Shown here: piece by piece, positions 6,248-52,933 of the stretch
How positions within the stretch are numbered: the first letter of the stretch is position 1
How the letters are laid out: each line of letters starts with the position of its first letter
Assembly (NCBI GenBank): GCA_964460855.1
Contig: CAYWQH010000001.1
Span: 59,868 to 123,867, forward strand
DNA: 64,000 bases
Direction: 5' to 3'
DNA from: an uncultured Candidatus Saccharibacteria bacterium
GTDB lineage: Bacteria > Patescibacteriota > Saccharimonadia > Saccharimonadales > UBA10212
Position numbers and translations under genes: made by a program
Notes under the pieces: generated by a model
Database searches by the model: none
Told to the model about the DNA's origin: nothing
What the model saw: the letters and a program-made list of their open reading frames with translations, nothing else

Positions 6248-6735
6248 TCTCCCCAGCTTTTATTAAGTGTCTCCACAAGTTTAAGGTTGGCGTCGGTATA
6301 TTTAAAAGTCAGCTGCCGTGTATTTTCGCCGTCGGGTAATAAATTAAATTCGATGGTAATTTTACGGTCCGGAAGTATTGAGTTCACGTTTTCCGGCCAT
6401 TCCACGGCGGTAATATTAGACGGCTCGTCAATTATTTCAGCCAGCTCGTCTTTCATAATTCCCGGCTCGGCCAAACGGTAGAAATCGAAGTGGTGCAAAA
6501 ATATGCCATCTCGGCCTTGGTAAACGCGGCTGATAGTAAACGTCGGGCTGTTTACTTGCTCGTCAGATTCCAGGCCTGTTGCCAGGCCTTTAACGAAAGT
6601 AGTTTTGCCGCTGCCTAAATCGCCGACCAGTTCTAATACTTCTCCGCCTTTAAGCAGAGCCCCCAGCCGCGCGCCGAGCTGCTCGGTTTGCGCGGAACTG
6701 GTGCAAACGGTTTGCCAGATCATGCCGGTACTCAT
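6235..6735 (-). CDS. tsaE: tRNA t6A biosynthesis ATPase TsaE
   Basis: GDLGSGKTTFVKGLA Walker A motif and SPTFTI motif. Start is uncertain (ATG at 6735 or 6723). Either start overlaps the 3' end of the upstream gene. Confidence 0.85.
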   Translation of the reverse strand: MSTGMIWQTVCTSSAQTEQLGARLGALLKGGEVLELVGDLGSGKTTFVKGLATGLESDEQVNSPTFTISRVYQGRDGIFLHHFDFYRLAEPGIMKDELAEIIDEPSNITAVEWPENVNSILPDRKITIEFNLLPDGENTRQLTFKYTDANLKLVETLNKSWGDWKS

Positions 6736-7927
6736 AACACGCATATAGTACGATTGCCGCCCCCAGCCCGGCAAGCACAAACGGGTTTAGTTTATTGGCG
6801 GAGTTGGCGGCTGCCAGCTTTTCGCCTACGCTATTTCCGGTATTGGCACCAGAAACTTTTTTGTTTTTAGTGGTTGCTGGTTTTGTTTTAGCGCTGTGCA
6901 GCGCGGCGGGTTTTGATGCTTTAGTTTTGCCAGCCGTATTTGCGGCGGCTGATAATGTAATAATATTTGCCGCGCCGGGAGTTGGCTGGTTAGTCCACTG
7001 CCACTTGCCGTCTTTAAGCGCCCAAGCCTGGCCGCTTTGGGCGGCAGAGTAGGGGCCGGATTGGTCCACAATATTCCCCGCTGGGTCATAAAGTTTTACC
7101 TGGCCGCTGGTATTGCTGAGCGTGAGGTGGCTTTGTTTGCTGTAAATTACCGCGTAATTCCGGGGCTTAAGCGTAACGCCGGAAATTATATACTTATAAC
7201 TTTCTTTAGTGCCGCTGGTTAATTTATAGCCGGTCAAGTCTACAGTGGCAGAAGTTGGGTTATATAACTCCACGAATTCATCGTTGGCGTCGGTTTGCGG
7301 CGCCGCCGGGTTGGGCATTAACTCAGTTATTTTTATTACGGCCGGTTGGGCAGCAGCCGAAGTTGCGCTTAACGCTTGCGGCGGTAGCTGAAATATATTG
7401 GCGGCTTTTGGCGTTGGGCTGGCAGTAATTGCAAAGCCGGCGCCGCCCAGCGCAATCGAACTGCCGGGCGGGGGCGCGGCGCTAATAGCCCCGGCCGCGG
7501 TACCCCAGGCGATTTGGTCCTGCACTTGGCCGGCCGGGTCAACCAACCTCAGTTGGCCGCCTTCCTGGGCTAGCGTACTATTAAAGCTGCTATCGGCCTG
7601 GCCGGTTAAATAACCGCTGCTAGCAAGCAAGTAGTAACCGCCTGCCCCAACCGAACCATTTACACCAAGGCTGCGGGTAGGGCTTGTCCAATCAGTTGAA
7701 TTGGCGCTTAAATAAAATATTTTCCAGCCGCTTACATTAATTGCCACCGGGCTATTGTTATAAAGTTCGATAAATTCCTGCCCGGCGCTGTCCGTAGAGC
7801 CGGTTTGTACTTCAGAAAATCGCACGCCTGCCTGTTGCGCCGCAACGCTGCCGCCTCCCGGCGAACTAAACCCCAGTATTGTAAGCGTAAGTAATATAGC
7901 TATACAATATATCTTCACTAACCGCAA
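6650..7927 (-). CDS. Secreted, C-terminally membrane-anchored protein with two lamin-tail-domain (LTD) repeats
   Basis: Signal peptide, then two LTD signatures (QEFIELYNNS..VSGWKI and DEFVELYNPT..LTGYKL), a Lys/Ala-rich linker and a C-terminal TM helix. Start codon uncertain (TTG at 7927 or GTG at 7918). Confidence 0.7.
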   Translation of the reverse strand: MRLVKIYCIAILLTLTILGFSSPGGGSVAAQQAGVRFSEVQTGSTDSAGQEFIELYNNSPVAINVSGWKIFYLSANSTDWTSPTRSLGVNGSVGAGGYYLLASSGYLTGQADSSFNSTLAQEGGQLRLVDPAGQVQDQIAWGTAAGAISAAPPPGSSIALGGAGFAITASPTPKAANIFQLPPQALSATSAAAQPAVIKITELMPNPAAPQTDANDEFVELYNPTSATVDLTGYKLTSGTKESYKYIISGVTLKPRNYAVIYSKQSHLTLSNTSGQVKLYDPAGNIVDQSGPYSAAQSGQAWALKDGKWQWTNQPTPGAANIITLSAAANTAGKTKASKPAALHSAKTKPATTKNKKVSGANTGNSVGEKLAAANSANKLNPFVLAGLGAAIVLYACYEYRHDLANRLHQFRANRAARRAAGGSA

Positions 7928-7992: not shown

Positions 7993-8535
7993 ATGTTGGC
8001 ACTCAGTAATAACCTCATTGACCGGCCCATTTTGAGCTTGCGCAGCGGCGGACGCATCGGCACTGCCCTGGAGCCAATTGTTAACCCCCACAACCTGCAA
8101 ATTATCGGCTGGTGGTGCGATAATTTGGCCGAAGAAAGCGACAATGTGCTAATGACCAGCGACGTTCGCGAAGTTTTGCCAACCGGCATCGTAATCGACG
8201 ACAGCCATAACTTCAGCAATCCCGAAGACCTGGCCCGCCAAAAAGAAGTGCTAGACACTAACTACAAAATTATCGGCAAACAAGTGCGCACCGAACACCA
8301 AAAAATCGGCAAGGTAGCCGATTATGTTTATGATTCTACGTTTCTCATACAAAAGATCCATGTCGAGCAGTCGCTGCTTAAAGCTTTGGCCCAGGATACC
8401 CGCATTATTGGCCGCAACCAAATTATTGAAGTTACAGACAAATATATCTTAGTTAAAGATTCCAGCGTTAAGGCCGGCGCCCAAACCAGCAAGCTGAGCG
8501 ACAAGCTGGCCGACGCCCTGCTGCCCAACACCTAG
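7993..8535 (+). CDS. Hypothetical protein, possibly tandem PRC-barrel-like
   Basis: 180-aa ORF with two similar halves resembling PRC-barrel proteins (..G..IG.V.D...). The assignment is weak. Confidence 0.4.
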   Translation: MLALSNNLIDRPILSLRSGGRIGTALEPIVNPHNLQIIGWWCDNLAEESDNVLMTSDVREVLPTGIVIDDSHNFSNPEDLARQKEVLDTNYKIIGKQVRTEHQKIGKVADYVYDSTFLIQKIHVEQSLLKALAQDTRIIGRNQIIEVTDKYILVKDSSVKAGAQTSKLSDKLADALLPNT

Positions 8536-9134
8536 TCGCGGTTGAGTTCTTCTTTTATCATGCCGTAGTTAAAACCCTGGCGGAGTAAATATTGCATGAA
8601 TTTTACCGGGTCGTTTTTATAACGGCTGCGGTTGGCGGTTTTGGCGATTACATCACACAAGGCCGCCCGTTCGTCTTCTTCACTGTCATCTAGCACCTCT
8701 TTTATAATTTCCTGGTCAATGCCCTTTTGCCGGAGTTCGAGCTGAAGTTTGCGGTTACTGCTGCGCTTGCCGGCCCGCCGGCTTTCAACCCACCATTTGG
8801 CAAACGCTTCGTCGTCCAGGTATTTTTTAGCCAGGAATTGCTGCTCCCAGGCTTCTATTAACTCCGGGTCGGCTTTTTTGCGGCGCAAATAATCCCGGAA
8901 TTCTTTGACTGAATGTGGTCGCAACAGCAGCCAGTTTAGCGTCCGGAATTTGGCCTTGCCTTCGTCTGATATTTTTTGCAGCGCTTTTAACCGGGGCTGG
9001 TCTATTTCTTGGCCGTGTTTAAGCTTTTCGGCTACCAGCTCGTCCAGGCTTAGCGAAAAACTATATTTGCCATCGACAAAAATGCTGGCCCGCTCCGGGT
9101 TTTTAACCTGCTGTTTTATCGCGGTAATCGTCAT
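8532..9134 (-). CDS. recX: Regulatory protein RecX
   Basis: MTITAIKQQVKNPERASIFVDGKYSFSLSLDELV N-terminus and helical repeats typical of RecX. Its ATG overlaps the upstream stop codon (ATGA). Confidence 0.85.
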   Translation of the reverse strand: MTITAIKQQVKNPERASIFVDGKYSFSLSLDELVAEKLKHGQEIDQPRLKALQKISDEGKAKFRTLNWLLLRPHSVKEFRDYLRRKKADPELIEAWEQQFLAKKYLDDEAFAKWWVESRRAGKRSSNRKLQLELRQKGIDQEIIKEVLDDSEEDERAALCDVIAKTANRSRYKNDPVKFMQYLLRQGFNYGMIKEELNRD

Positions 9135-9595
9135 ACGGTTTTTAAGATAAGGGCGCTTACGAAAACAAACCACACGGCCTCCGCCCAGATGCCTTGCGGG
9201 AATTCTTTCCATTGGATGAATGAGTGGAAGCGCGACAGGTGGTTTTTTGGCTTGACGGTTTTACTGCGCCGTTCGTTAAAGAAGCGGAAGCCCCAGATAA
9301 GGTCGGGCGACATGCAGGCAAACATGCAAAGCGCCACCAGCCAGGGGTTTACCGTAGGCGCTATTAATATAGGCACGCTTATCAGCAAGGCCAGGGCAAC
9401 CGCGCAATCAATCGCCAGTACTTTTAAAAACCTCTTGTCGGCATTGCGCTTTAACACGTTAGGTTCATCAATGCCGAAATGCGGCATGGCGTCCATGGCA
9501 AAATGGGCGCCAAAAGCTAATATTACCGCCAGCACCGGCTGGTGTATTGCCACCGCGATTAACGCGCCGGTGATGGCATGGTTAGTGGCCGTCAT
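9131..9595 (-). CDS. Membrane-bound metal-dependent hydrolase-like protein (DUF457 / YdjM-like)
   Basis: 154-aa polytopic ORF with an MTATNH.. N-terminus and an HFAMDAMPH motif resembling the YdjM family. Lies between recA and recX. Confidence 0.5.
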   Translation of the reverse strand: MTATNHAITGALIAVAIHQPVLAVILAFGAHFAMDAMPHFGIDEPNVLKRNADKRFLKVLAIDCAVALALLISVPILIAPTVNPWLVALCMFACMSPDLIWGFRFFNERRSKTVKPKNHLSRFHSFIQWKEFPQGIWAEAVWFVFVSALILKTV

Positions 9596-21918: not shown

Positions 21919-22551
21919 ATGGGAGAGATACCTGGAAAATACGAACCAATCAATAACACGAATTGGTTATTGGAAACCGCTTTTCACCCTTATTGGAACC
22001 GCGAGAAAAGCCGGTTGCTTTACGATTTGCCGGTGCCGGTTAACCGCATAAGCCGCCGGCCCTATGGAATAGGCTACCTTACTAAAGAAGCCGGCTTAAA
22101 AATGGAGTATTTAAACCAGTTAGCCGGAATTTATGTATATTCCAGCCCGATGTCGCATATCGGTCCTTATAACTCAGCCATGGATATTATCGTAGCCGAC
22201 GGCACGCCCGTACTGGCGTCCCAAAAGGGCAAAGTCGTTCGTTTCCAAGACCAATTCGACACATGGGGTACTACACCGGAATATTCCAAATATTTAAATT
22301 TCATTACCTTGCAACACGAAAACGGCGAATTTTCGGAATATGGCCATTTAATGCGGCATTCAATTAACGACCTTTCGTTGGATTTAGGCGATGAAATAAC
22401 CAAGGGCCAGCGGATTGGCACAGTTGGCAAAACTGGCTGGACCACCTTAGACCACCTGCACTTCATGGTTTTCCGCGAAGACCAGGGCGATGAATCGTTC
22501 GAAAATAAAGCCGGCTTTAAAAGCCTGGCGCCGCGGTTCGCGGCATTTTAA
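21919..22551 (+). CDS. M23 family metallopeptidase
   Basis: GKTGWTTLDHLHFMV and H..DI...DGTPV motifs. No obvious signal peptide. Confidence 0.8.
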   Translation: MGEIPGKYEPINNTNWLLETAFHPYWNREKSRLLYDLPVPVNRISRRPYGIGYLTKEAGLKMEYLNQLAGIYVYSSPMSHIGPYNSAMDIIVADGTPVLASQKGKVVRFQDQFDTWGTTPEYSKYLNFITLQHENGEFSEYGHLMRHSINDLSLDLGDEITKGQRIGTVGKTGWTTLDHLHFMVFREDQGDESFENKAGFKSLAPRFAAF

Positions 22552-26511: not shown

Positions 26512-27384
26512 TTATCGTTGTTGGGCGGGCCAGGCCACATCCATTATTAACTGGGGCCGCGGCCGTGGTTGGCGGGCAACAACGGGCGGCGCCTGGTTAG
26601 GTATAGCTGCCGGAACTAAATTAGTTGTGTCACTCCAAGCAGGTGATGGCGCGGCGGGCACAGGCTTGGCTTTATTGCTATTGGCAATCCAGATCATAAC
26701 GATTGATACCTGGTACAGAATGATTATCGGGGCGGCCATAATAGCCTGGTTGAGCGGGTCCGGAGTTGGCGTTAGTATGGCCGCGATTATGGCGCTGCCC
26801 AAGATTACGTAGCGCTGGTAGCGCATCAAGCCGCGCGGCGACTGCGGTTTTACCCGGTTAATAAACAAGATAATGAGCGGCAGCTGGAATAATATTGCAA
26901 AGCCAACGATATAGCTCAAGATAAAGTTCATATACTCATTAACCAGGATAAACGGCGCGATGCCCGGCGTATTAAGGTTGGTTAAAAAGTGCAGGGCAGC
27001 CGGTAAACTTATGAAGTAAGCGACCGCCGCGCCAATTGCCGCTAACGCCAGTGAAGTAAAAATTATATATATTGACCGCGACGGCAGCGACTTATGGAAC
27101 GCCGGCTGCAAAAAGCCGTGAAGTTGATGAATAATGACCGGCAAGGCCACGACCAATCCAAACAGGATTGACACTTTCAAAATAGCATTCAACCCGCCGA
27201 CCGGTGACGTGTAATAAAGCTGCTGGCCGAGCGGTTTTTGGATCATGGCAAATAACTGCGCATGCAACCAGTAGCCGGCAGCCGTGCCGGCTAAAATCGC
27301 AGCCAAACAAACAATCAGCCGTCGCCGAAGTTCGCGGATGTGTTCGCTAAAAGGCTGGCGGTGCATGCGAGAAGCACCATCCAT
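26512..27384 (-). CDS. tatC: Sec-independent translocase TatC, with a Pro-rich C-terminal extension
   Basis: FSEHIRELRRRLI N-terminus and six TM helices. AAGGAG lies 6 nt upstream of the ATG at 27384. About 50 extra C-terminal residues rich in Pro/Ala. Confidence 0.9.
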   Translation of the reverse strand: MDGASRMHRQPFSEHIRELRRRLIVCLAAILAGTAAGYWLHAQLFAMIQKPLGQQLYYTSPVGGLNAILKVSILFGLVVALPVIIHQLHGFLQPAFHKSLPSRSIYIIFTSLALAAIGAAVAYFISLPAALHFLTNLNTPGIAPFILVNEYMNFILSYIVGFAILFQLPLIILFINRVKPQSPRGLMRYQRYVILGSAIIAAILTPTPDPLNQAIMAAPIIILYQVSIVMIWIANSNKAKPVPAAPSPAWSDTTNLVPAAIPNQAPPVVARQPRPRPQLIMDVAWPAQQR

Positions 27385-27402
27385 ACTTTTCTCCTTAACT
27401 GT

Positions 27403-27579
27403 TTATTTTTGCTCTGGGGTTTCTGTTTTTTGATCAGAACCCTTGCCATTTAGCCCGTCGCGGAGTTCCTTGGCCGATTGGCCCAGGCTGCGCGATAGCT
27501 TTGGCAAGCGTGTACTGCCAAACAGCAACAGCAGGATAGCTAAAATTATTATTAATTCTGGTAAGCCGATATCCGGCAT
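27403..27579 (-). CDS. tatA: Sec-independent translocase TatA/E
   Basis: MPDIGLPELIIILAILLLLFGSTRLPKLSRSLGQS. GGAGG lies 8 nt upstream of the ATG at 27579. Confidence 0.85.
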   Translation of the reverse strand: MPDIGLPELIIILAILLLLFGSTRLPKLSRSLGQSAKELRDGLNGKGSDQKTETPEQK

Positions 27580-27657
27580 AATAAAACCCTCCAATCAGGT
27601 TTAACTTTATAATAGCATATGCTTTTTGAAATAGTACAACTTAATTTTGCGGTATTT

Positions 27658-30231
27658 TTACAACAGGCCGCACCAAAAGGTGAAGGCGCTGGCGGTACTG
27701 TTGCTGAAAAACAAGGTATTAGGCATTGTGGTTTGGCCGGCAATATTCGAAGCCCAGCGGATAACGAACTTGTCCGAGCCCATTACGCCGAGGTTGGCGC
27801 GGGCGGCCACGCTGTTGCCGCACCAGAAAACCGGCATTGTCGTACCGGTAGCCAACATAGCTACCACCATATACTGCCCCGGCGAGCCGGTGAGCTTTAC
27901 GGTTGAGGTCAAAGCCAAGCTTTGTTCCCCCGTACCGCCGAATGCGGCGGTAACATCGCCGGTCACCGCCATTTTGGTGCCGCGCATATCATAGATAGCC
28001 ATAAAGTTCCGCCCGGCCGTTAGCCCGGATCCAGCTGTTTCGATGCCGACCATAATGTTGCTGACATCCATAAAATCTTCCATCGGAACTTTAGCGATAA
28101 ATATCTGGGCACTAACCGGCGAATTGGTGGACTGGATATCATTGGGGTCAAAGCTCCACGACTTGAACTTATTCATGTTGGGGCGGACGCTGCGGCCCAA
28201 ACTCTTATTGGAAGTGGCCATGTCGTTGGTGACTTTGGGGAAAGCGGCTTGGTAGCCGGGCGTCACGTAGTTCAGGCCGGCAAAGGTGTTCGATACATAA
28301 TTGCCGGAAGGCGGCGGCCCGAGCAGCACCTGGCCGGAGATATTGGCTTTGGGCGGCCAGTAAACGCCTTTAATACTGTCGTAGTTGCCGAGTCCGTCGT
28401 CGGCGGTAGCGATGGAGCGCAATTTGACGTCCGGTTCGGCGGCGGTACCGTATGGCCGGCAAGTAGTTAGCAGCGTTTGTACCAGACCGCCCGTGGCAGT
28501 CATTTGGTAAGGAATAATATAAACGTCTTTAAGCTGCATAGGTATGTCGCGGGTGCCTTGCCAAAGCAGCTGGCGGGAACCAATGCCGGCAATCGTATCG
28601 ACGGCTGTGATGTCCATTCGTTTAGCCACTATGCCGCGGCAACGGGCGTCGACGTTGGCAACATTACTAGCGAATAATCCCTGGTAAGTAGAGTAGCCGG
28701 TCAGTTTATCTACCCGGAGTTCGCGGCAGCCGCCTTCCATTTCGATAATATCGGGGTGCTTATCGGTAAATGTCGAACTGTGGGCGACGATTGGCTGGCC
28801 GGGATCGCCTACGCGGCAGTTCTGGATCTGGACGATAGCTTCCGGGCAGTAAACCTGGAAGCCATCAGATAAGTCCACCCCATGAAGATAAAGTCCTTCG
28901 AGATGGACTACGCCGGTAGCGTTACCAATAAAAATGCCGCGGCTATAAGTATCGGAATCGTTGGGCCGCTGGTCGGGGTGGTCAATCTCACCGCCGATCC
29001 AGACAATATTGCGGCCGCCGCTTAAATAAACGGCACCCGTAGATAGGGTCGAACTAATCGTATTAGGGCAATAAATAACGTAATCTTGGTTGGGAAGTAA
29101 ATTGGGGTAATAGTTGCCGCCGGCTACCAATGTGATTTCTATCGGGTTATCCAGCTCGGGCGGCGCCCAGGTCAGGCGCTGGTCATCTACGGCCGACAGG
29201 CGCGGGTCGGTGGTATCCACGACAGCATTGCCATTGTGCTGCAAGGCGCCGGTAAAATCCTTATCGCCAGTTACCGTTTCGGTACCGGCTAAATGAACAA
29301 CGGACGTATCAGCGGCTTTAGCCGCCAAGCCTGGTACTGTCGGCGAGGCTGCCGTGCCGGCCAAGTCGCCGGCAAGCTGTACGATACCTTTGCTTAAAGT
29401 GGTAGCATCGGCCGCGCCGGAAGGCGTTACCCAGGTCTGGTCACCGCGTAAGAATTTTGTGTTATCAGCCCCTGCTCCACCTAATTGGGCGGTTGGAACT
29501 TTGGAGCCGCTATCGAGCGACGCGTAACCCGAAGCAGCCCCTTTATTGGCGGTACTTTCTTTAGAAGCTAAACCAGGGACTGTAGGCGAAGCAGCCGTAC
29601 CGCCCAAGTCGCCGGCAAGCTGGACGATACCCTTGCTGAGAGTGGTGGCGTCGGGCGCGCCGGCAGGCGCAACCCAGGTTTGGTCGCCGCGCAAGAATTT
29701 AGTGTTATCAGCCCCGGCACCGCCCAATTGGGTTGTAGGTACTTTGGTGCCGCTGTCGAGTGAAGCGTAGCCCGAAGCCGCGCCTTTATTCGCCGTATTT
29801 TCTTTGGCAGACAATCCCGGAACCGTAGGGGACGCGGCGGTACCGCCCAAGTCGCCAGCTAGCTGGACAATGCCCTTGCTTAGAGTAGTAGCATCCGGCG
29901 CCCCGGCTGATGTAGTACTGTCTACATACGCTTTAGTGGCGGCATCCTGCGGATTGGAAGGGTCGGCAACGTTAATAGCCTTCTTACTATTAAATGATAC
30001 GTCGGCGCTGGGCGAAGCCATCGGGCGGGCATCGCTTAACCGCGAATCGGATGTCGAGATAGTACCTAAATTCGAACGGGCAGTAGCGGCATCGGTCGCG
30101 CCGGTGCCGCCTTTAGTTACACCTAAGGTTTTCTGCGAACCGTCGGCGTTATGCTCCTGCGATAAAAAATCATTTAAGATGTCCCCCCAGGTGCCGTCAT
30201 CTGATCCCGGTATGGGCAGGCGATGAGCCAT
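27658..30231 (-). CDS. Phage-tail-fibre-like repeat protein with probable beta-helix core (857 aa)
   Basis: N-terminal GGTGATDAATARSNLG and DAATKAYVD motifs, three 81-aa repeats containing KGIVQLA and FLRGDQTW, then a beta-helix-like region. No signal peptide. Confidence 0.7.
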   Translation of the reverse strand: MAHRLPIPGSDDGTWGDILNDFLSQEHNADGSQKTLGVTKGGTGATDAATARSNLGTISTSDSRLSDARPMASPSADVSFNSKKAINVADPSNPQDAATKAYVDSTTSAGAPDATTLSKGIVQLAGDLGGTAASPTVPGLSAKENTANKGAASGYASLDSGTKVPTTQLGGAGADNTKFLRGDQTWVAPAGAPDATTLSKGIVQLAGDLGGTAASPTVPGLASKESTANKGAASGYASLDSGSKVPTAQLGGAGADNTKFLRGDQTWVTPSGAADATTLSKGIVQLAGDLAGTAASPTVPGLAAKAADTSVVHLAGTETVTGDKDFTGALQHNGNAVVDTTDPRLSAVDDQRLTWAPPELDNPIEITLVAGGNYYPNLLPNQDYVIYCPNTISSTLSTGAVYLSGGRNIVWIGGEIDHPDQRPNDSDTYSRGIFIGNATGVVHLEGLYLHGVDLSDGFQVYCPEAIVQIQNCRVGDPGQPIVAHSSTFTDKHPDIIEMEGGCRELRVDKLTGYSTYQGLFASNVANVDARCRGIVAKRMDITAVDTIAGIGSRQLLWQGTRDIPMQLKDVYIIPYQMTATGGLVQTLLTTCRPYGTAAEPDVKLRSIATADDGLGNYDSIKGVYWPPKANISGQVLLGPPPSGNYVSNTFAGLNYVTPGYQAAFPKVTNDMATSNKSLGRSVRPNMNKFKSWSFDPNDIQSTNSPVSAQIFIAKVPMEDFMDVSNIMVGIETAGSGLTAGRNFMAIYDMRGTKMAVTGDVTAAFGGTGEQSLALTSTVKLTGSPGQYMVVAMLATGTTMPVFWCGNSVAARANLGVMGSDKFVIRWASNIAGQTTMPNTLFFSNSTASAFTFWCGLL
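29317..29904 (-). repeat. Tandem in-frame coding repeats, period 243 nt (2 full copies plus 1 partial)
   Basis: CCAAGTCGCCGGCAAGCTG.ACGATACC.TTGCT recurs at about 29361, 29604 and (diverged) 29847. At protein level APDATTLSKGIVQLAGDLGGTAASPTVPGL occurs three times. Confidence 0.9.
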
Positions 30232-30294
30232 TGCTACTCCATGTTATGCTAATGGCTATTTTAGCAATTTTTTGCACAAATTTGTATCTGTAAT

Positions 30295-31125: not shown

Positions 31126-31202
31126 GGCAGGGTAGCTCAGTTGGTTAGAGCACAGGACTCATAAGCCTGGGGTCGCGAGTTCAAATCTCGCCCCTGCTAC
31201 CA
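31126..31202 (+). tRNA. tRNA-Met (anticodon CAU), elongator type, CCA encoded
   Basis: GGCAGGG/TA/GCTC-AGTTGGTTA-GAGC/A/CAGGA-CTCATAA-GCCTG/GGGTC/GCGAG-TTCAAAT-CTCGC/CCCTGCT/A/CCA. The D and anticodon region closely resemble E. coli elongator tRNA-Met. Confidence 0.85.
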
Positions 31203-35875: not shown

Positions 35876-35970
35876 ATTGAACTCCTTGTTTATCTAATTA
35901 TAGCCCTTTTATGGTCGGTTGCGTTAAATTACGTTTTAGCTTATGGTTAAGTTACTCAATCAAAAAGCTT

Positions 35971-38004
35971 ATGAAGCTCGCAAAACCAAAAATAAGCAAT
36001 TCAATTTCAAAAGACTCGGCTTTATCTAAAAAAGGCCTGTTTATATTTGCCGGCGCTTTCGCAATTATCGGCGCTTTTTTGTTAATTAAGAGTTTTGCGG
36101 CAACAACTTTAATTACAAAGTTAGAAGCCGAGCAGATGATATTATCTGCGGGAGAAAAAGTGGTTACAAGCCCCACCGGGTCGGGCGGCAAATCGGTGCA
36201 TTTAAACTACAACGGCAGCGCCACCGGGCAAGTTAGTTTTCCTAGCAGTATTACGTCGCTTACCGTAATGGCTGCCGGTTCGCAGTGTTATGGCGCGCCG
36301 CATATGACACTGAACGTTGACGGGGTGAACCTTTTAACTAATGTATCCGTTACTTCCAGCAGCTGGCAGGCATTCAGCATCGCGCATAACTATGGCGCTG
36401 GCGTTCATACCCTAAAGATTAGTTTTAATAATGACTACGCTAAATCCGGGGTTTGCGACCGGAACCTATACTTGGACGTCACCAGGTTCTACGGCCCAGC
36501 CGTAATTACGCCTCCCCCGACCATATCACTGTCGGCCACCCCAACCAAAGTAAGCACGGGGCAAAGCTCTACCCTAACTTGGAAAGCAACCAACGCAAGT
36601 TCTTGTACGGCCAGCGGATCATGGAACGGCGCTGTGCCAACCTCGGGTTCACAAAGTACCGGCGCGCTTAATGTTGCGTCAACTTATTCCCTGGCCTGTA
36701 CCGGCAGCGGTGGAACGGCCAAAGCATCAGTGACAGTTTCGATAGGCACGGCCGCGCCGCCGCCCTCATCTAATTCTTATATACCGACGTATTACGTTAG
36801 CGCCAACGGAAGTGACTCAAACAGCGGTACCTCGGCCGCGTCGCCGTGGCGGACTATAGCCAAAGCTAAAAGCGTGTGCATGTCGCCAGGCCAGGTAATT
36901 GCCTTTGAAGGCGGCCAAACATATAATGACACCTGGTTCGGACCGCGCTGTATGGGCACGGTATCAGCCCCGATAGTTGTTACCAGTTATGGTACGGGCC
37001 GGGCGGAAATTGCCGGCGGCGTTTGGTTAGACGGCGGTACCCACAATATAACTTTTGACGACCTCGATTTTACCGATTCAGCAAGCGGCATTATCGCGTC
37101 TTGCGGCAGCTGTAGTGCCAACCCCACCTACGATATAATCATTCAAAATTCTATTATCCACGACACGCCCAGTACAGGGTTGCAATGTAACCCTAACGAC
37201 CACAACTGGCTGATCCGCCATAATACTTTCCGCCACATCGGCGATTCCGGGCTAATTACTTACTACTGCCGCGATATCGTCATAACCGGCAACACCATTA
37301 ATGACACCGGCTGGAACGCTGCCATTACTTACGGCAAGCACGGCATTTATTCTAAATCGGTAGGTTCAGAAATTAGCTACAACGACATTTCCGGCAATGC
37401 CGGCGGCGGCGCCGTATCAATCCGTACGCACGGCCAGCGCATTTTTGGTAACGCGCTGCACGATACCATGTACCCGCTGGCTTTCTTTAACTACGACAAT
37501 AAAGCGCAAGACCCGGGCGTTGCGACGTACATTTACTACAACCGCATGTGGAATATCGGCGGCTACGGTTTCTATTACGATAACGGCCTCGACCCTTCCG
37601 GCCAAGTTTCCACTGTAAACTTCGTAATCGCCAACAATACATTCGTTTTCAATAATGCCTCAGAAGGCTTTAACTTCTCATTAACGCCCAGTACCGCCCA
37701 CGTAACGTTCGCCAATAACATAGCTACCGGTACTTTCGGTAACGCCTTCAGGACCTGCCCTACTTGCAGCGAATACAACAACATTTGGAATGGCGGCGCT
37801 TCGATGCCGCACGGCACAGGTGATATTGTAGCCAACCCGCTGGTTGGCGGCGCGCCCGGCTTGGCCCTGCCCAGCAACTCACCGGCAATCGACCGCGGCA
37901 GTTTGTCGGTTCCCGGTTTAAGTTATACGGTTAGCGCCGACGGCGCGCCGCTGCATTACCAAAGTTCGGCTCCCGATATGGGCGCCGTCGAATCGCCCTA
38001 CTAG
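35971..38004 (+). CDS. Secreted protein: CBM-like module, Ig-like domain and right-handed beta-helix
   Basis: Signal anchor ending in SFAAT. About 130 aa of beta-sandwich (EAEQM..), an Ig-like LSATPTKVSTGQSSTLTWKATNASSC segment, and repeated beta-helix turns (NSIIHDT, ITGNTINDTG, IFGNALHDT). Confidence 0.65.
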   Translation: MKLAKPKISNSISKDSALSKKGLFIFAGAFAIIGAFLLIKSFAATTLITKLEAEQMILSAGEKVVTSPTGSGGKSVHLNYNGSATGQVSFPSSITSLTVMAAGSQCYGAPHMTLNVDGVNLLTNVSVTSSSWQAFSIAHNYGAGVHTLKISFNNDYAKSGVCDRNLYLDVTRFYGPAVITPPPTISLSATPTKVSTGQSSTLTWKATNASSCTASGSWNGAVPTSGSQSTGALNVASTYSLACTGSGGTAKASVTVSIGTAAPPPSSNSYIPTYYVSANGSDSNSGTSAASPWRTIAKAKSVCMSPGQVIAFEGGQTYNDTWFGPRCMGTVSAPIVVTSYGTGRAEIAGGVWLDGGTHNITFDDLDFTDSASGIIASCGSCSANPTYDIIIQNSIIHDTPSTGLQCNPNDHNWLIRHNTFRHIGDSGLITYYCRDIVITGNTINDTGWNAAITYGKHGIYSKSVGSEISYNDISGNAGGGAVSIRTHGQRIFGNALHDTMYPLAFFNYDNKAQDPGVATYIYYNRMWNIGGYGFYYDNGLDPSGQVSTVNFVIANNTFVFNNASEGFNFSLTPSTAHVTFANNIATGTFGNAFRTCPTCSEYNNIWNGGASMPHGTGDIVANPLVGGAPGLALPSNSPAIDRGSLSVPGLSYTVSADGAPLHYQSSAPDMGAVESPY

Positions 38005-44825: not shown

Positions 44826-44901
44826 TGGTGGGGATGCCTGGACTTGAACCAGGGACCAATCGGTTATGAGCCGACTGCTCTAACCACTGAGCTACATCCC
44901 C
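44826..44901 (-). tRNA. tRNA-Ile2 (anticodon CAU, lysidine-dependent type), CCA encoded
   Basis: Reverse complement is GGGGATG/TA/GCTC-AGTGGTTA-GAGC/A/GTCGG-CTCATAA-CCGAT/TGGTC/CCTGG-TTCAAGT-CCAGG/CATCCCC/A/CCA. The body closely resembles E. coli ileX, and tilS is present in the window. Confidence 0.8.
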
Positions 44902-45585: not shown

Positions 45586-45660
45586 CGCGGGGTAGAGCAG
45601 TGGCAGCTCGTGTGGCTCATAACCACAAGGTCGCCGGTTCGAGTCCGGCCCCCGCTACCA
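45586..45660 (+). tRNA. Initiator tRNA-fMet (anticodon CAU), CCA encoded
   Basis: CGCGGGG/TA/GAGC-AGTGGCA-GCTC/G/TGTGG-CTCATAA-CCACA/AGGTC/GCCGG-TTCGAGT-CCGGC/CCCCGCT/A/CCA. Has a C1:U72 mismatch and a CGCGGGG start as in bacterial initiators. Confidence 0.85.
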
Positions 45661-50368: not shown

Positions 50369-51442
50369 TTAGTAGTTGTAGCCAGGCGAAACGTAGTTGT
50401 AGCCAGCCACGCCGACCGGAACGAAGTCGCCACCCGCAGGGCTTCCCGGCAATATTTTTCCGATAATTCGGGCAGTGGCCGGCCATGATATAGATCCGTC
50501 TGAATTTTTAATGGCCCGGTTTCCAACAACCGGATCGACGTTGCTTGGTTTAACGGCTGCAATTAACGGTTCTGTAGTTCCATTGCCTAACTTTTGAGGC
50601 TGCAGGTAAACATTGGTTAAATAAAGCGCGTTGCGGTTATCTGCCCGCCAAAGCAATTGTGCATAGTGGGTGCCGGGGATCGGCGTGCCCCGTACATTAG
50701 TATTTCTGATATAAACCGGGTAGTTTTGGTTGGCTGCTGCTCCGCCTGTCCAGTGCGCAAAGAATAAAGCCTGGTAATCGGTTTGGATTGTAGCCCTGTC
50801 GACGCGGACCTGGTGAGCGCCGGGTGCTATGCCTGGATAGACATAAACGCCGTCGGGGTGGTCGTCGCTAAAGTTAACTTCGTCGCGGGCATTGATGCCT
50901 TCGACGCGAATATTTTCATATGTAACTGTAGCGCTGGAGCCGGAATATTCGGCAAAATCGAGCACGTCGCCGTGGCACCAAAAGCCTTCGACATGGTTCC
51001 AGCTCCGTATGTCATTGAAAGATAAGCAGCGCCGTATTTTATGGTCATAAACCAATGGCTGCTGCGGGATTTTACACTCTCCGCCGATAATTTTGGCCAT
51101 TCGCACATGGTTAACACTCAAGCAGCCGACTCCGGGCTTTGGAGTAACAGCGGTTTTCGGAAAAACGAATACGTAGTCTTTAGAAGGGTCACCGAAAAAT
51201 TCCAGCCCGGTTTTAGGCACATTAACGGTAATAGTGCTGGTTGTTGTAGGCCACGGCGCCCAGGCGAGCCTTGGAACTGTAGCCGCATGGCTGTTAGTAA
51301 TTAAATAAGTGCCGAGGGCCGCAAAAACGGTGGTGAATAAGGCTATTAAAAGCCAACTCAGGCGGTTGCCATAATTTAATTTTTGGCTTTTTGGGGCTGT
51401 TTTCTTTTTGGTGTGCGTATTTTTCTTTTTCATTTTGGTCAT
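50369..51442 (-). CDS. Secreted protein, paralogue of the central module of the 857-aa tail-fibre-like protein
   Basis: Lys-rich N-terminus plus a signal anchor ending in SHAAT. Colinear motif matches to 27658-30231 (see findings). Confidence 0.55.
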   Translation of the reverse strand: MTKMKKKNTHTKKKTAPKSQKLNYGNRLSWLLIALFTTVFAALGTYLITNSHAATVPRLAWAPWPTTTSTITVNVPKTGLEFFGDPSKDYVFVFPKTAVTPKPGVGCLSVNHVRMAKIIGGECKIPQQPLVYDHKIRRCLSFNDIRSWNHVEGFWCHGDVLDFAEYSGSSATVTYENIRVEGINARDEVNFSDDHPDGVYVYPGIAPGAHQVRVDRATIQTDYQALFFAHWTGGAAANQNYPVYIRNTNVRGTPIPGTHYAQLLWRADNRNALYLTNVYLQPQKLGNGTTEPLIAAVKPSNVDPVVGNRAIKNSDGSISWPATARIIGKILPGSPAGGDFVPVGVAGYNYVSPGYNY

Positions 51443-51478: not shown

Positions 51479-52933
51479 CTATTCTTCTCTTGGGTAATTG
51501 TCAACTTTTGGACGCCCGCGGCGATGCAGAATTAACACTGGCGCCGCAAGCAAACTATATAGCGCAGCCATGTAAGCCGCGCTGATTTTTACTGTTACCG
51601 CCGGGGCGGCGTTAGCTAAAACCGTTACCGCTTTTAATATATAGCCGCCAATCAGCCACTTTGCCGGCAAGGCCAGCCAGCCGCTGTATGCCGGCAATAA
51701 CCAACCTGCTATACCGGCAATTAACGCGCAGAGCATAGCCAATGGAATTAGCGGAACCACTAATACATTTGCTGCCAAAGATAATAAGCCGAATTTGCCA
51801 AATACGAACATTATTAACGGGGCTGTCATTAACGTAGCGCAAAAAGTTTCCAGGGCGATGCCCAGCACTACGCCCGGTTCGCGGCTGCCAAAGTACCGGG
51901 TTTTTACGGCCGGGGCTAAAATTAATATCCCGGCAAAAGCTAAGAAGGATAAATACCAGCCAATATCCGACCAAATGTATTGCGGATTCCATAGCGCGGT
52001 TAAAGCCGCGGCAAATAAAATTAATACCAGCGGCCTGATGGCGCGCCCGTAATACCAGCAGGCCAGCACCAGGCCGGACACCAAAGCCGCCCGGACGATA
52101 GAAGCGCTAAGCCCGGTTAGCTCAATAAACAGTACGATCAATATTAAACTGGCCGCCAATGTTTGGTAGCGCGAGCGGAACAACCGGCTACGGCGCACGG
52201 CATTAACTAAAATCGTTAAGTTATATCCCGATACAGCAATTATATGCGTCAGCCCCACGACACTTAAAGCGGCAAGCAGGTCGGGCGGCAAGGTGCTACG
52301 CTGCCCGACCAATAAACCCATGGCAAACGAGGCTTGGGGTTCGGGCAGGGCCGTTAACATACCGGCCGTAAACTTACGGCGGGCGGAGTCCAGCAAATTA
52401 CTGCCGGCGGCCAGGCGGCTTATTTGGGCAAAACTCAGTCGAGGCTGGCCGTGGCTCAGGTATATTTTTCCGCTGACTTCCACGTTATCGCCGCGGTACA
52501 CCATTGGCTCGCCAAAGCCGCTAACCGCCAAATTTCCTAATAAATGCTCCCCGCCTGGCTGCAATTGAAGATTGCCTAAAGTAAAAGCCAGCTGGCTTTT
52601 GTTGCCATAAACCGAGTCGGCCAACACGCTGCCATGGATAGTTACTTGATGCCCGGCTAAACTTTGCAGCTGGTTTAATTTTAAAAATTGCTGCTGGCCG
52701 CGGTATAAGGCGATAGTAAAACTAAGAATTATAAGGCCGGCAATGAACAGGCGGGGATTGGTTTTAAAAGATAAGATCGTTATCACCGCAGCGGTGAAGG
52801 CCGGCCAATAGTTTAGGTAAGGCAGCTTGCGGGCAGCCACCAAACCAATCAATATTGCCAGGCAGCAAAGCAACACCACGTTAGTCCGCCTTGGCAGCCA
52901 ATTGTCCCGCTCCACAGCCAAATCATGCCACAA
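51479..52933 (-). CDS. comEC: DNA internalisation-related competence protein ComEC/Rec2 (membrane domains only, no C-terminal beta-lactamase domain)
   Basis: 484 aa. N-terminal OB-like region followed by a polytopic competence domain with LTHIIAVSGYNLTIL. Confidence 0.85.
   Translation of the reverse strand: MWHDLAVERDNWLPRRTNVVLLCCLAILIGLVAARKLPYLNYWPAFTAAVITILSFKTNPRLFIAGLIILSFTIALYRGQQQFLKLNQLQSLAGHQVTIHGSVLADSVYGNKSQLAFTLGNLQLQPGGEHLLGNLAVSGFGEPMVYRGDNVEVSGKIYLSHGQPRLSFAQISRLAAGSNLLDSARRKFTAGMLTALPEPQASFAMGLLVGQRSTLPPDLLAALSVVGLTHIIAVSGYNLTILVNAVRRSRLFRSRYQTLAASLILIVLFIELTGLSASIVRAALVSGLVLACWYYGRAIRPLVLILFAAALTALWNPQYIWSDIGWYLSFLAFAGILILAPAVKTRYFGSREPGVVLGIALETFCATLMTAPLIMFVFGKFGLLSLAANVLVVPLIPLAMLCALIAGIAGWLLPAYSGWLALPAKWLIGGYILKAVTVLANAAPAVTVKISAAYMAALYSLLAAPVLILHRRGRPKVDNYPREE

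Follow-up and report, generated by a model that had tools for sequence, protein, structure and literature searches.

A phage-tail-fibre-type gene in the chromosome of an uncultured Saccharibacterium, with a distal half resembling that of phages of Actinobacteria

Fibres of phages and of bacteria that live on bacteria

Phage-like fibres have been described on the surface of the predatory bacterium Bdellovibrio bacteriovorus, where the mosaic adhesive trimer (MAT) family comprises 21 members with a conserved N-terminal domain and mosaic tips (Caulton et al. 2024, PMC10769870). The tips, which include tumour necrosis factor (TNF)-like, beta-sandwich and lectin forms, recognise glycans of the prey surface (PMC10769870). 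By analogy, the MAT family is the closest cellular precedent for the gene considered here, which lies at 27658-30231 on the minus strand of a 64-kb window (the whole stretch of DNA analysed, 64,000 nucleotides from an uncultured Candidatus Saccharibacteria bacterium) and encodes an 857-amino-acid protein of the phage-tail-fibre type. Phage-like fibres in predatory bacteria, and the repeat family DUF5907 that forms part of this protein, are already known. What appears to be undescribed is the family of its N-terminal module, the dual life of that module in phage virion modules and in epibiont chromosomes, and the actinophage affinity of the distal half.

The Saccharibacteria in culture live as epibionts of Actinobacteria (PMC10633639), and the mechanisms by which episymbionts recognise their hosts are called "largely unknown" in the abstract of PMC11623550. 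The candidates for host binding have so far been type IV pili and a few glycan-binding proteins (PMC10633639). In Southlakia, several essential envelope proteins carry glycan-binding domains, the targets of which the authors speculate to be glycans of the host cell, and the highlights of the same study state that multiple adhesins are required for epibiotic growth (PMC10633639). Genes for host cell-wall polysaccharides affect epibiont defence and phage susceptibility alike (PMC13622651).

The intact gene described here encodes the full layout of an actinophage-type tail fibre or minor tail protein in a chromosomal context that is not that of a phage. A plausible reading, if one short of probable, is that the epibiont uses a domesticated fibre to recognise a cell-wall glycan of the actinobacterial host on which it lives, and perhaps to cleave it. 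The epibiont itself would display the protein as an extracellular, presumably trimeric, fibre (the AlphaFold2 (AF2) models are monomeric only), which the conserved N-terminal module would hold on a conserved structure of the epibiont cell, with the stalk projecting the distal half outward. The tip, perhaps together with a beta-rich domain acting as glycan binder or depolymerase, would recognise an actinobacterial wall polysaccharide, a receptor of the same kind as that used by related actinophages, and new host specificities would be gained by swaps of distal modules with the phages of the host.

The gene and its chromosomal setting

The open reading frame (ORF) is genuine. It opens at the first possible start codon past the upstream stop, so no N-terminal extension is hidden, and its product is modular, as set out below with the evidence for each part in brackets.

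27658..30231 (-), whole ORF, 857 amino acids plus stop, modular protein of the phage-tail-fibre type (Pfam, PHROG and protein matches)
30064..30231 (-), N-terminal module (N-module), residues 1-56 (HMMER family, identity to BRock gp186, IMG/VR phage contigs)
29905..30063 (-), collar, residues 57-109, including PSNPQDAATKAYVD (aligned by PHROG tail-fibre, head-decoration and minor-tail families)
29302..29904 (-), DUF5907 repeat stalk, residues 110-310 (Pfam PF19264, Tandem Repeats Finder (TRF))
29662-29904 (-), DUF5907 repeat 1, residues 110-190, full unit of 81 amino acids
29419-29661 (-), DUF5907 repeat 2, residues 191-271, full unit of 81 amino acids
29302-29418 (-), DUF5907 repeat 3, partial unit of 39 amino acids
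29182..29301 (-), neck, residues 311-350 (VVHLAGTETVTGDKDFTG...), BppL_N-like (weak Pfam match)
28249..29181 (-), beta-rich middle domain, residues 351-661, about 310 amino acids (AF2, alignment of homologues; no Pfam model)
28168..28248 (-), linker, residues 662-688, predicted to be disordered (AF2 predicted local distance difference test (pLDDT) below 50 across fragment residues 325-368)
27661..28167 (-), jelly-roll tip, residues 689-857, putative receptor-binding domain (tblastn, AF2, Foldseek)
30237-30240 (-), GGAG Shine-Dalgarno sequence of the fibre gene (weak, read by eye)
30258-30266 (-), TGCTAAAAT, extended -10-like element of the fibre gene (weak, read by eye)

The possession of its own Shine-Dalgarno sequence makes the gene apparently expressible; no full sigma-70 promoter was called upstream of it in a consensus scan. 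In profile searches with the whole protein, PHROG minor-tail and tail-fibre families matched, all within residues 1-340, while a PDB sequence search and an NCBIfam search gave no match. The exact protein (P0001) is present on a 193-kb NCBI contig and on a Logan contig of run SRR9179563. It is the single member of its 90% cluster, its exact sequence was seen on those two contigs only, and its nearest other relative shares 44% identity in the C-terminal half. A tatC-anchored search of JGI metagenomes returned one distant locus at 32% identity.

The gene is flanked by tatA/tatC on one side and by an FNR-like reductase gene and a tRNA-Met gene on the other, as had been noticed from the sequence at the outset. 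The ORF map of the window also holds genes for RecA, RuvABC, FtsH, TilS, TatA/TatC, YebC and ComEC, a type IV pilus operon (PilB, PilC, pilins, PilM) and several secreted glycan-binding proteins. Ordinary chromosome with housekeeping, pilus and membrane genes thus extends for ~27 kb on one side of the fibre gene and ~34 kb on the other. Within the 64 kb, neither the ORF map nor the scanned neighbours included an integrase, capsid, terminase, tape-measure or baseplate gene, in line with the sequence-only reading. There was likewise no PHROG structural match among ten unannotated neighbours, the sole PHROG match being to an M23-type peptidase domain. The gene is therefore not encoded beside tail or baseplate genes of a phage or prophage. 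It lies outside any prophage, and the possibility, raised in the same reading, that it is the edge of an intact one is in effect excluded by the length of the chromosomal flanks.

Integration at the tRNA-Met gene, ~900 bp away, was considered and discarded, since neither att-like repeats nor an integrase are present and the fibre gene is located 5' of the tRNA, whereas integration usually takes the 3' side. As a separate observation, three tRNA-Met (CAT) genes occur inside 15 kb, at 31126-31202 (+), 44826-44901 (-) and 45586-45660 (+). Two further probable surface or secreted glycan-related proteins are encoded at 35911-38004 (+) and 6650-7927 (-), one combining CBM60, a right-handed beta-helix and a hydrophobic N-terminus, the other having lamin-tail domains. 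Between RuvB and FtsH, 21919-22551 (+) encodes a 210-amino-acid protein with an M23-type metallo-endopeptidase domain and no obvious signal peptide, which matches PHROG endolysin, peptidase and tape-measure families (best E 7e-14).

An N-terminal module shared with proteins of phage virion gene blocks

The N-module has the core M-x-RLP-x-PG-x-DDGTWGD-x-LN-x-FL-x-x-EHN-x-DG, followed by KGGTGATDAATARSNLG. Searched exhaustively with HMMER, residues 1-40 matched 4,140 cluster representatives at E<=1e-3; almost all of the best 150 carry the match at residues 3-39, the extreme N-terminus. Proteins encoded on IMG/VR viral contigs with a guanine-plus-cytosine (GC) content of 0.42 to 0.67, some of them at 42-44%, carry the module at their exact N-terminus; on one contig (L088) the gene lies between portal, major-head and virion-structural genes, and on another (L085) directly 3' of a tape-measure gene. 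Identity reaches 67% with what is probably the true N-terminus of gp186 of Streptomyces phage BRock. The N-terminus of the fibre protein is thus homologous to fibre-type proteins of phage virion modules. Judged from gene order, the module in phages forms the start of proteins whose genes lie within the virion gene block or next to it, and by the general build of phage fibres it would be the end that attaches to the tail.

What follows the module varies. Among 104 members, Pfam domains behind it include pectate-lyase-like and other beta-helices, GDSL esterases and polysaccharide deacetylases; the glycoside hydrolase (GH) families GH26 and GH39, the carbohydrate-binding modules (CBM) CBM5/12 and CBM4/9, and Laminin_G_3; and Mtd_N, Gp10_C, an endosialidase N-extension and collagen. 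This set is the usual receptor-binding and depolymerase toolkit of phages.

The annotated start of BRock gp186 (8188-9135 of locus L082; NC_048650.1 100187-101134) overlaps a tRNA-Lys gene, and the N-module (MTRLPIPDSDSGTWDD...) begins ~70 codons past it; for both reasons the start as deposited is probably an error, and the actual protein would have ~245 amino acids, consisting of N-module and tip. A 280-kb contig that bears the label Candidatus Limnocylindrales (Chloroflexota) encodes two N-module proteins (P0159/P0179; HUQ85068.1, HUQ85063.1) at a distance of five locus tags from each other, which means either that the module extends beyond Saccharibacteria or that a prophage or a binning error is involved. 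Four further proteins (P0198, P0204, P0216 and P0274) have 3-6 internal copies of an N-module-like motif in place of one N-terminal copy.

The sharing of the module between cellular genes and phages with a GC of 42-56%, near that of Saccharibacteria, could also point to an anti-phage decoy. Here the standard adaptor would compete with phage fibres for the docking site on the tail, so that progeny would be mis-targeted or non-infectious, and no export would be needed. We give this explanation hardly any credence: no PADLOC defence model matched the fibre protein at E<=0.01, no defence genes lie nearby, and an elaborate, selectively maintained distal half with glycan-active domains would be superfluous in a decoy.

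Collar, stalk and neck

The tblastn matches of the collar were to decoration and structural proteins of mycobacteriophages and cyanophages. Behind it, Pfam DUF5907 (PF19264) gave three matches (E 2.9e-20, 72.7 bits against a cut-off of 27), which places the stalk in that family. The neck resembles BppL_N weakly (residues 310-330, E 0.0036, below the cut-off), and the motif is significant in two paralogues, P0004 and P0041. The tail-fibre-like N-terminal motifs picked out in the sequence-only reading are borne out by these matches together with those to PHROG families.

The same reading had seen three tandem units of 81 amino acids, near-identical 243-nt repeats and hence a likely site of copy-number variation. 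The tandem array is real, with a period of 243 and an 82% match in TRF, and the pair was confirmed by a separate repeat search (family D1), but it runs to 2.4 copies, two full and a 39-amino-acid partial third. Near identity did not hold up: copies 1 and 2 share 80.7% of their nucleotides and 91.4% of their amino acids, and the longest identical in-register run is 17 nt. By the Nei-Gojobori method the two copies differ at 40 synonymous and 7 non-synonymous positions (dS 1.31, dN 0.040, dN/dS 0.03). The duplication of the stalk is old and has been kept by purifying selection, and repeat-mediated copy-number variation is not supported, given the 81% nucleotide identity and the shortness of the longest identical run.

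A beta-rich middle domain without a Pfam model

The middle domain was modelled by AF2 as beta-rich, with a pLDDT of about 85-90. It ends in the motif GPPP-x-G-x-(F/Y)V...Y-x-(S/T)PGY, and D, E, H and Y columns are invariant across 24 homologues. No sequence match to it was found in Pfam, PHROG, NCBIfam or the PDB (the last including a profile search). In Foldseek the nearest structures were tailspike beta-helices (the Klebsiella K2-2 tailspike protein (TSP), Kp7 gp52, the CBA120 TSPs and RaK2), at a marginal E of 3e-4 and a template modelling (TM) score of ~0.19. The probable beta-helix of the sequence-only reading retains this tailspike match, but the TM score is low and none of the Pfam beta-helix models matches, and a beta-helix or depolymerase assignment of the predicted structure is a weakly supported lead.

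The domain was found in 55 loci of GTDB genomes (many Actinomycetota, Chloroflexota, Saccharimonadales and others) and on 17 viral contigs. In those loci the proteins are mostly stand-alone, of ~300 amino acids, and most of the stand-alone cellular versions begin with a signal peptide, lipobox or membrane anchor. One such version lies in the window.

50369..51442 (-), paralogue of the middle domain only, 357 amino acids, with an N-terminal membrane anchor or signal (blastp)

It shares 28% identity with the middle domain of the fibre over 319 amino acids (blastp E 4e-22), and neither Pfam nor PHROG nor NCBIfam has a match to it; the ComEC gene (51479-52933, -) adjoins it. Since the stand-alone homologues and this paralogue carry export or anchor N-termini, the middle domain presumably works extracellularly. 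The family as a whole is widespread, undescribed and without a Pfam model.

A jelly-roll tip

The tip was predicted by AF2, from a 13-sequence alignment, to be a beta-sandwich or jelly roll (pLDDT 80.8, predicted TM score 0.81). Foldseek against the PDB matched it to a capsid-associated chain of cyanophage A4 (E 1e-5), to the tail tip of mycobacteriophage Bxb1 (9d93; E 1e-4, TM 0.63) and to the central fibre gp20 of mycobacteriophage Douge (8zdp; E 5e-4, TM 0.59), with weaker matches to CBM6, CBM32 and TNF-like lectins (E ~0.03). When the tip was compared with 50,697 phage records by tblastn, all 26 matched records were Streptomyces phages, the matched proteins being minor tail or tail fibre proteins where annotated; in both of the proteins that were translated the match lay at the C-terminal end. 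Identity is 33% with BRock gp186 and 30% with BRock gp211 (pairwise E ~1e-15), and the tip of the Saccharibacteria paralogue P0041, from a 1.16-Mb contig, shares 43% with that of gp211 (E 2e-34). By the Streptomyces records and the Bxb1 and Douge fold, then, the distal domain is homologous to phage receptor-binding tips. The C-terminal domain, put earlier at ~250 amino acids, is of about 170-190.

A word-indexed search with the tip alone returned three mini-fibres (P0150-P0152) of 212-220 amino acids, in which nothing but a short coiled coil separates a variant N-terminus (MAIPPITLGSSNWGTPVND...) from the same jelly-roll tip, and which represent the minimal form of this fibre type.

Origin of the distal half

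The C-terminal 518 amino acids of the fibre had 32 matching proteins in 5.8 billion. In the best eight, middle domain, linker and tip are matched together as a single unit, which covers 92-95% of the 518-amino-acid fragment at 41-44% identity, and four of these eight (P0123, P0003, P0121 and P0002) were located on contigs. P0123 (on L001) lies among genes for a major-tail-like protein, a tail protein, a head-tail adaptor and a tape-measure-like protein, P0003 (on L004) lies near a tail sheath gene, and P0121 and P0002 lie in tightly packed arrays of genes on the same strand. The GC of the contigs is 63-70%, as against 48% (48.1%) for the window. Matches to the head-tail adaptor of L001 came from 419 phage records, the hosts of which are in nearly every case actinobacteria (Gordonia, Microbacterium, Mycobacterium, Streptomyces and others), and this high-GC contig is clearly that of an actinophage; the sheath of L004 had distant relatives only. 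The L004 contig comes from run SRR9179559 and the exact fibre protein from SRR9179563, two neighbouring accession numbers.

In a neighbour-joining (distance) tree of the middle domain, the version in the fibre joined the clade of high-GC phages, with which it shares 50-52% identity, as against 38% or less with every other group (31-33% with the Saccharimonadales versions, 28% with the paralogue in the window). On these comparisons, the distal 500 amino acids appear most like those of phages infecting Actinobacteria. GC at third codon positions (GC3) rises along the gene, from 0.54 in the N-module to 0.62 in the middle domain and 0.69 in the tip, the genome mean being 0.545 (standard deviation 0.057). 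This rise fits an N-terminal part that has long been resident and a distal half that came from a high-GC source and is partly ameliorated, the direction of transfer being read from composition alone.

A stand-alone protein of receptor-binding or depolymerase type outside a prophage had been proposed from the sequence at the outset, and the proposal is supported by the phage-virion-module homologue at the N-terminus, the actinophage minor-tail homologue at the tip and the housekeeping flanks. The comparison with tail-fibre structures recommended at the same time is that given above, with the tip matching Bxb1 and Douge and the middle domain weakly resembling tailspike beta-helices. The probably Saccharibacterial identity of the bacterium, the large multi-paralogue family and the clustering of the distal half with actinophage proteins go beyond what was seen then.

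An enzyme directed at environmental polysaccharide for nutrition, or at the cell's own envelope for remodelling or the release of daughter cells, would use the phage-like parts as a scaffold. Family members do carry GH, GDSL, deacetylase and CBM domains, and the window encodes other secreted glycan-binding proteins, including the Sec-type copy of the middle domain. This explanation is nonetheless very unlikely, in that the tip and middle domain of the fibre cluster specifically with virion proteins of high-GC phages, catalytic activity is only putative, and a soluble enzyme needs neither an adaptor nor the build of a long-stalked fibre.

Paralogues in other Saccharibacteria

Almost all named relatives with the complete N-terminal architecture bear a Saccharimonadales or Saccharibacteria label, and these labels, together with the gene content, make the bacterium of the window probably a member of the Saccharimonadales. 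A contig of 898,771 bp carries at least two paralogues, one (P0029) between TruB and S15/PNPase and the other (P0075) between L31/RF1 and S2/EF-Ts. Others lie between housekeeping and glycogen-metabolism genes (P0118, on a 432-kb contig), between TrmD and other core genes (P0041), and directly beside a type IV secretion system (T4SS) locus with TrbL_3 and six T4SS_pilin genes (P0008; L006 1-9400, JGI Ga0105032_100002). In these five loci no gene was found for a tail, baseplate, capsid, terminase or holin protein or for an integrase. The gene thus recurs outside prophages in related genomes, in housekeeping or other non-phage contexts, a point on which the sequence-only reading had advised a check. 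Since genomes of ~1 Mb keep several intact paralogues, multi-copy retention argues for selection.

A tightly coupled or overlapping ORF was seen 3' of each of the Saccharibacteria paralogues (L095 8631-11393, L096 8706-9515, L097 8797-10005 and L008 11536-12696). Their products, of 920, 269, 402 and 386 amino acids, have no signal peptide or precomputed Pfam match and are mutually unrelated by BLAST. A conserved downstream partner or chaperone was rejected on that ground, and the fibre gene of the window has no such ORF at all.

These paralogues bear also on whether the fibre gene is a neutral relic of an old phage integration or gene transfer, open by chance or recently acquired. It is an orphan without partners, at 55.8% GC in a window of 48.1% and with a tip GC3 of 0.69; a tRNA-Met gene is near, and close orthologues are lacking, the 90% cluster having one member on two contigs and the next relative matching at 44% over the C-terminal half. 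Set against this are an intact 2.6-kb ORF in a streamlined genome, with its own Shine-Dalgarno sequence; a GC3 at the genome mean in the N-terminal two-thirds; a dN/dS of 0.03 between the repeats, though part of that selection may pre-date the transfer; several intact paralogues per genome in housekeeping contexts of other Saccharibacteria; and the absence of att-like repeats and integrase, with the gene on the 5' rather than the usual 3' side of the tRNA. A relic is, on balance, decidedly unlikely.

Export, display and the weighing of proposed host recognition by the epibiont

Several points weigh against a fibre displayed by the epibiont for host recognition, the first of which concern export. 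That the protein lacks a signal peptide, as was stated from the sequence, agrees with the ORF and its hydropathy: it has no hydrophobic N-terminus or transmembrane segment (maximum Kyte-Doolittle(19) 1.28; mean of the first 40 amino acids -0.69), and no Sec or Tat signal, the N-terminus MAHRLPIPGSDDGTWGD... being hydrophilic and without a twin-arginine (RR) motif. Docking of the N-module on the cell is hypothetical, and a phage or particle context fits the module at least equally well. Neither the annotation nor the transposon-sequencing supplements of Southlakia epibionticum hold tail-fibre or DUF5907 entries, and no mention of DUF5907 or tail-fibre-like proteins in Saccharibacteria or Patescibacteria was found in the literature, nor an account of the samples behind the SRR runs. 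With some N-module phage contigs at 42-44% GC, Saccharibacteria-infecting phages could carry similar tips. The view of the genome covers 64 kb, so that a tail or tailocin cluster could lie elsewhere, and the direction of transfer was taken from GC3 alone.

The Tat system exports folded proteins, and the fibre gene lies 63 nt upstream of tatA-tatC (26512-27594, -) on the same strand with no terminator-like site between them. Export by Tat on the strength of adjacency was nevertheless rejected as the main explanation: an RR motif is lacking in the protein, tatA is preceded by a Shine-Dalgarno and a promoter-like sequence of its own, and the arrangement is absent at the five paralogue loci. The adjacency is probably coincidental, given those paralogue loci and the signals of tatA itself. 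From the single case of P0008, a T4SS is one candidate route or platform for signal-less fibres.

Phage fibres leave the cell by lysis and for that reason need no signal peptide. In a rival reading, the chromosome would keep spare fibre genes with a standard N-terminal adaptor, whose products join in trans the tails of a prophage, a tailocin or an infecting phage with genes elsewhere and leave the cell on lysis, the C-terminal half setting the target range of the particle. On contigs that are undoubtedly those of phages, the genes of N-module proteins stand within the virion block or next to it, the conservation of the module across thousands of proteins implies one conserved docking site, and both the missing export signal and the limited part of the genome in view are as such an arrangement would have them. 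It is unlikely all the same: genes for tail, baseplate, capsid, terminase, holin or integrase were found neither in the window nor in the five paralogue loci, the paralogues occur one by one between core genes of ~1-Mb genomes and form no cassette array, and a particle of a 48% GC Saccharibacterium aimed at Actinobacteria would be unusual.

Host recognition by a domesticated fibre may be extended to a broader proposal, namely that Saccharibacteria, and possibly other epibionts of the candidate phyla radiation (CPR), have domesticated phage tail fibres as their own host-recognition organelles, exchanging distal halves with the phages of the host, so that epibiont and phage compete and co-evolve on the same wall glycans. 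The proposal is rather doubtful as it stands. Were it true, the type of tip would predict the hosts of uncultured Saccharibacteria from metagenomes, and tip sequences could guide co-cultivation. Host, phage and epibiont would be engaged in a three-way arms race over the same cell-wall polysaccharides, fibres without a signal would imply an undescribed route of export or display, and a second independent case, after the Bdellovibrio MAT proteins, would be at hand of a bacterium living on bacteria by means of phage-type adhesion hardware. The fibre is a concrete, clonable candidate for host binding in CPR/Patescibacteria. Should the reading fail, the 4,140 clusters still define an N-terminal module of fibre-type proteins that is widespread and uncharacterised, and the beta-rich domain still defines a new family without a Pfam model.

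Comparison with known systems

Among the structures compared, one domain of the Bxb1 (9d93) and Douge gp20 (8zdp) tail-tip proteins superposes on the predicted tip of the fibre (TM 0.59-0.63, probability 1.0). Those proteins are much larger and share 14-16% sequence identity with the tip, the likeness being one of fold with a single domain. The repeats are shared with hundreds of DUF5907 proteins named "tail fiber domain-containing protein" in Flavobacteriia and Saccharimonadales (three repeats are above threshold in the fibre). The flavobacterial ones are of 1,000-1,400 amino acids and have other termini, such as an endosialidase chaperone domain, and DUF5907 itself has no assigned function.

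Nearer to the fibre in build are the minor tail proteins of BRock and of the related Streptomyces phages grouped with it (FlowerPower, TG1, Ibantik, LuckySocke and others). BRock gp211, a minor tail protein, runs from N-terminus through coiled coil and beta-helix to tip, the same order of modules as in the fibre, and shares the tip at 30%; gp186 shares both the N-module (67%) and the tip (33%). The BRock proteins are encoded by a phage (gp186 being a putative virion protein), whereas the fibre gene is chromosomal and stands among housekeeping genes, and the fibre differs further in its DUF5907 stalk and in a different beta-rich middle domain that has no Pfam model. The putative fibres of the high-GC phages (P0002, P0003 and P0121-P0125; L001, L004, L098 and L099) resemble it at 41-44% identity over the C-terminal 480-500 amino acids and have the same join of middle domain, linker and tip. 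They are unlike it in having other N-terminal parts without the N-module and an extra inserted domain, and in lying beside tail, adaptor, tape-measure or sheath genes.

The likeness to the MAT proteins was drawn from their description. MATs have a signal peptide and a conserved beta-rich N-terminal domain of ~130 amino acids, and they have been shown on the cell surface, whereas the fibre has no signal peptide and a phage-type N-module of ~56 amino acids, and its surface display is a proposal. What the two have in common is the plan of the family: as with the MATs, the fibre belongs to a multi-paralogue family (4,140 representatives, with at least two paralogues on one 0.9-Mb contig) in which a conserved proximal end is joined to diverse distal tips.

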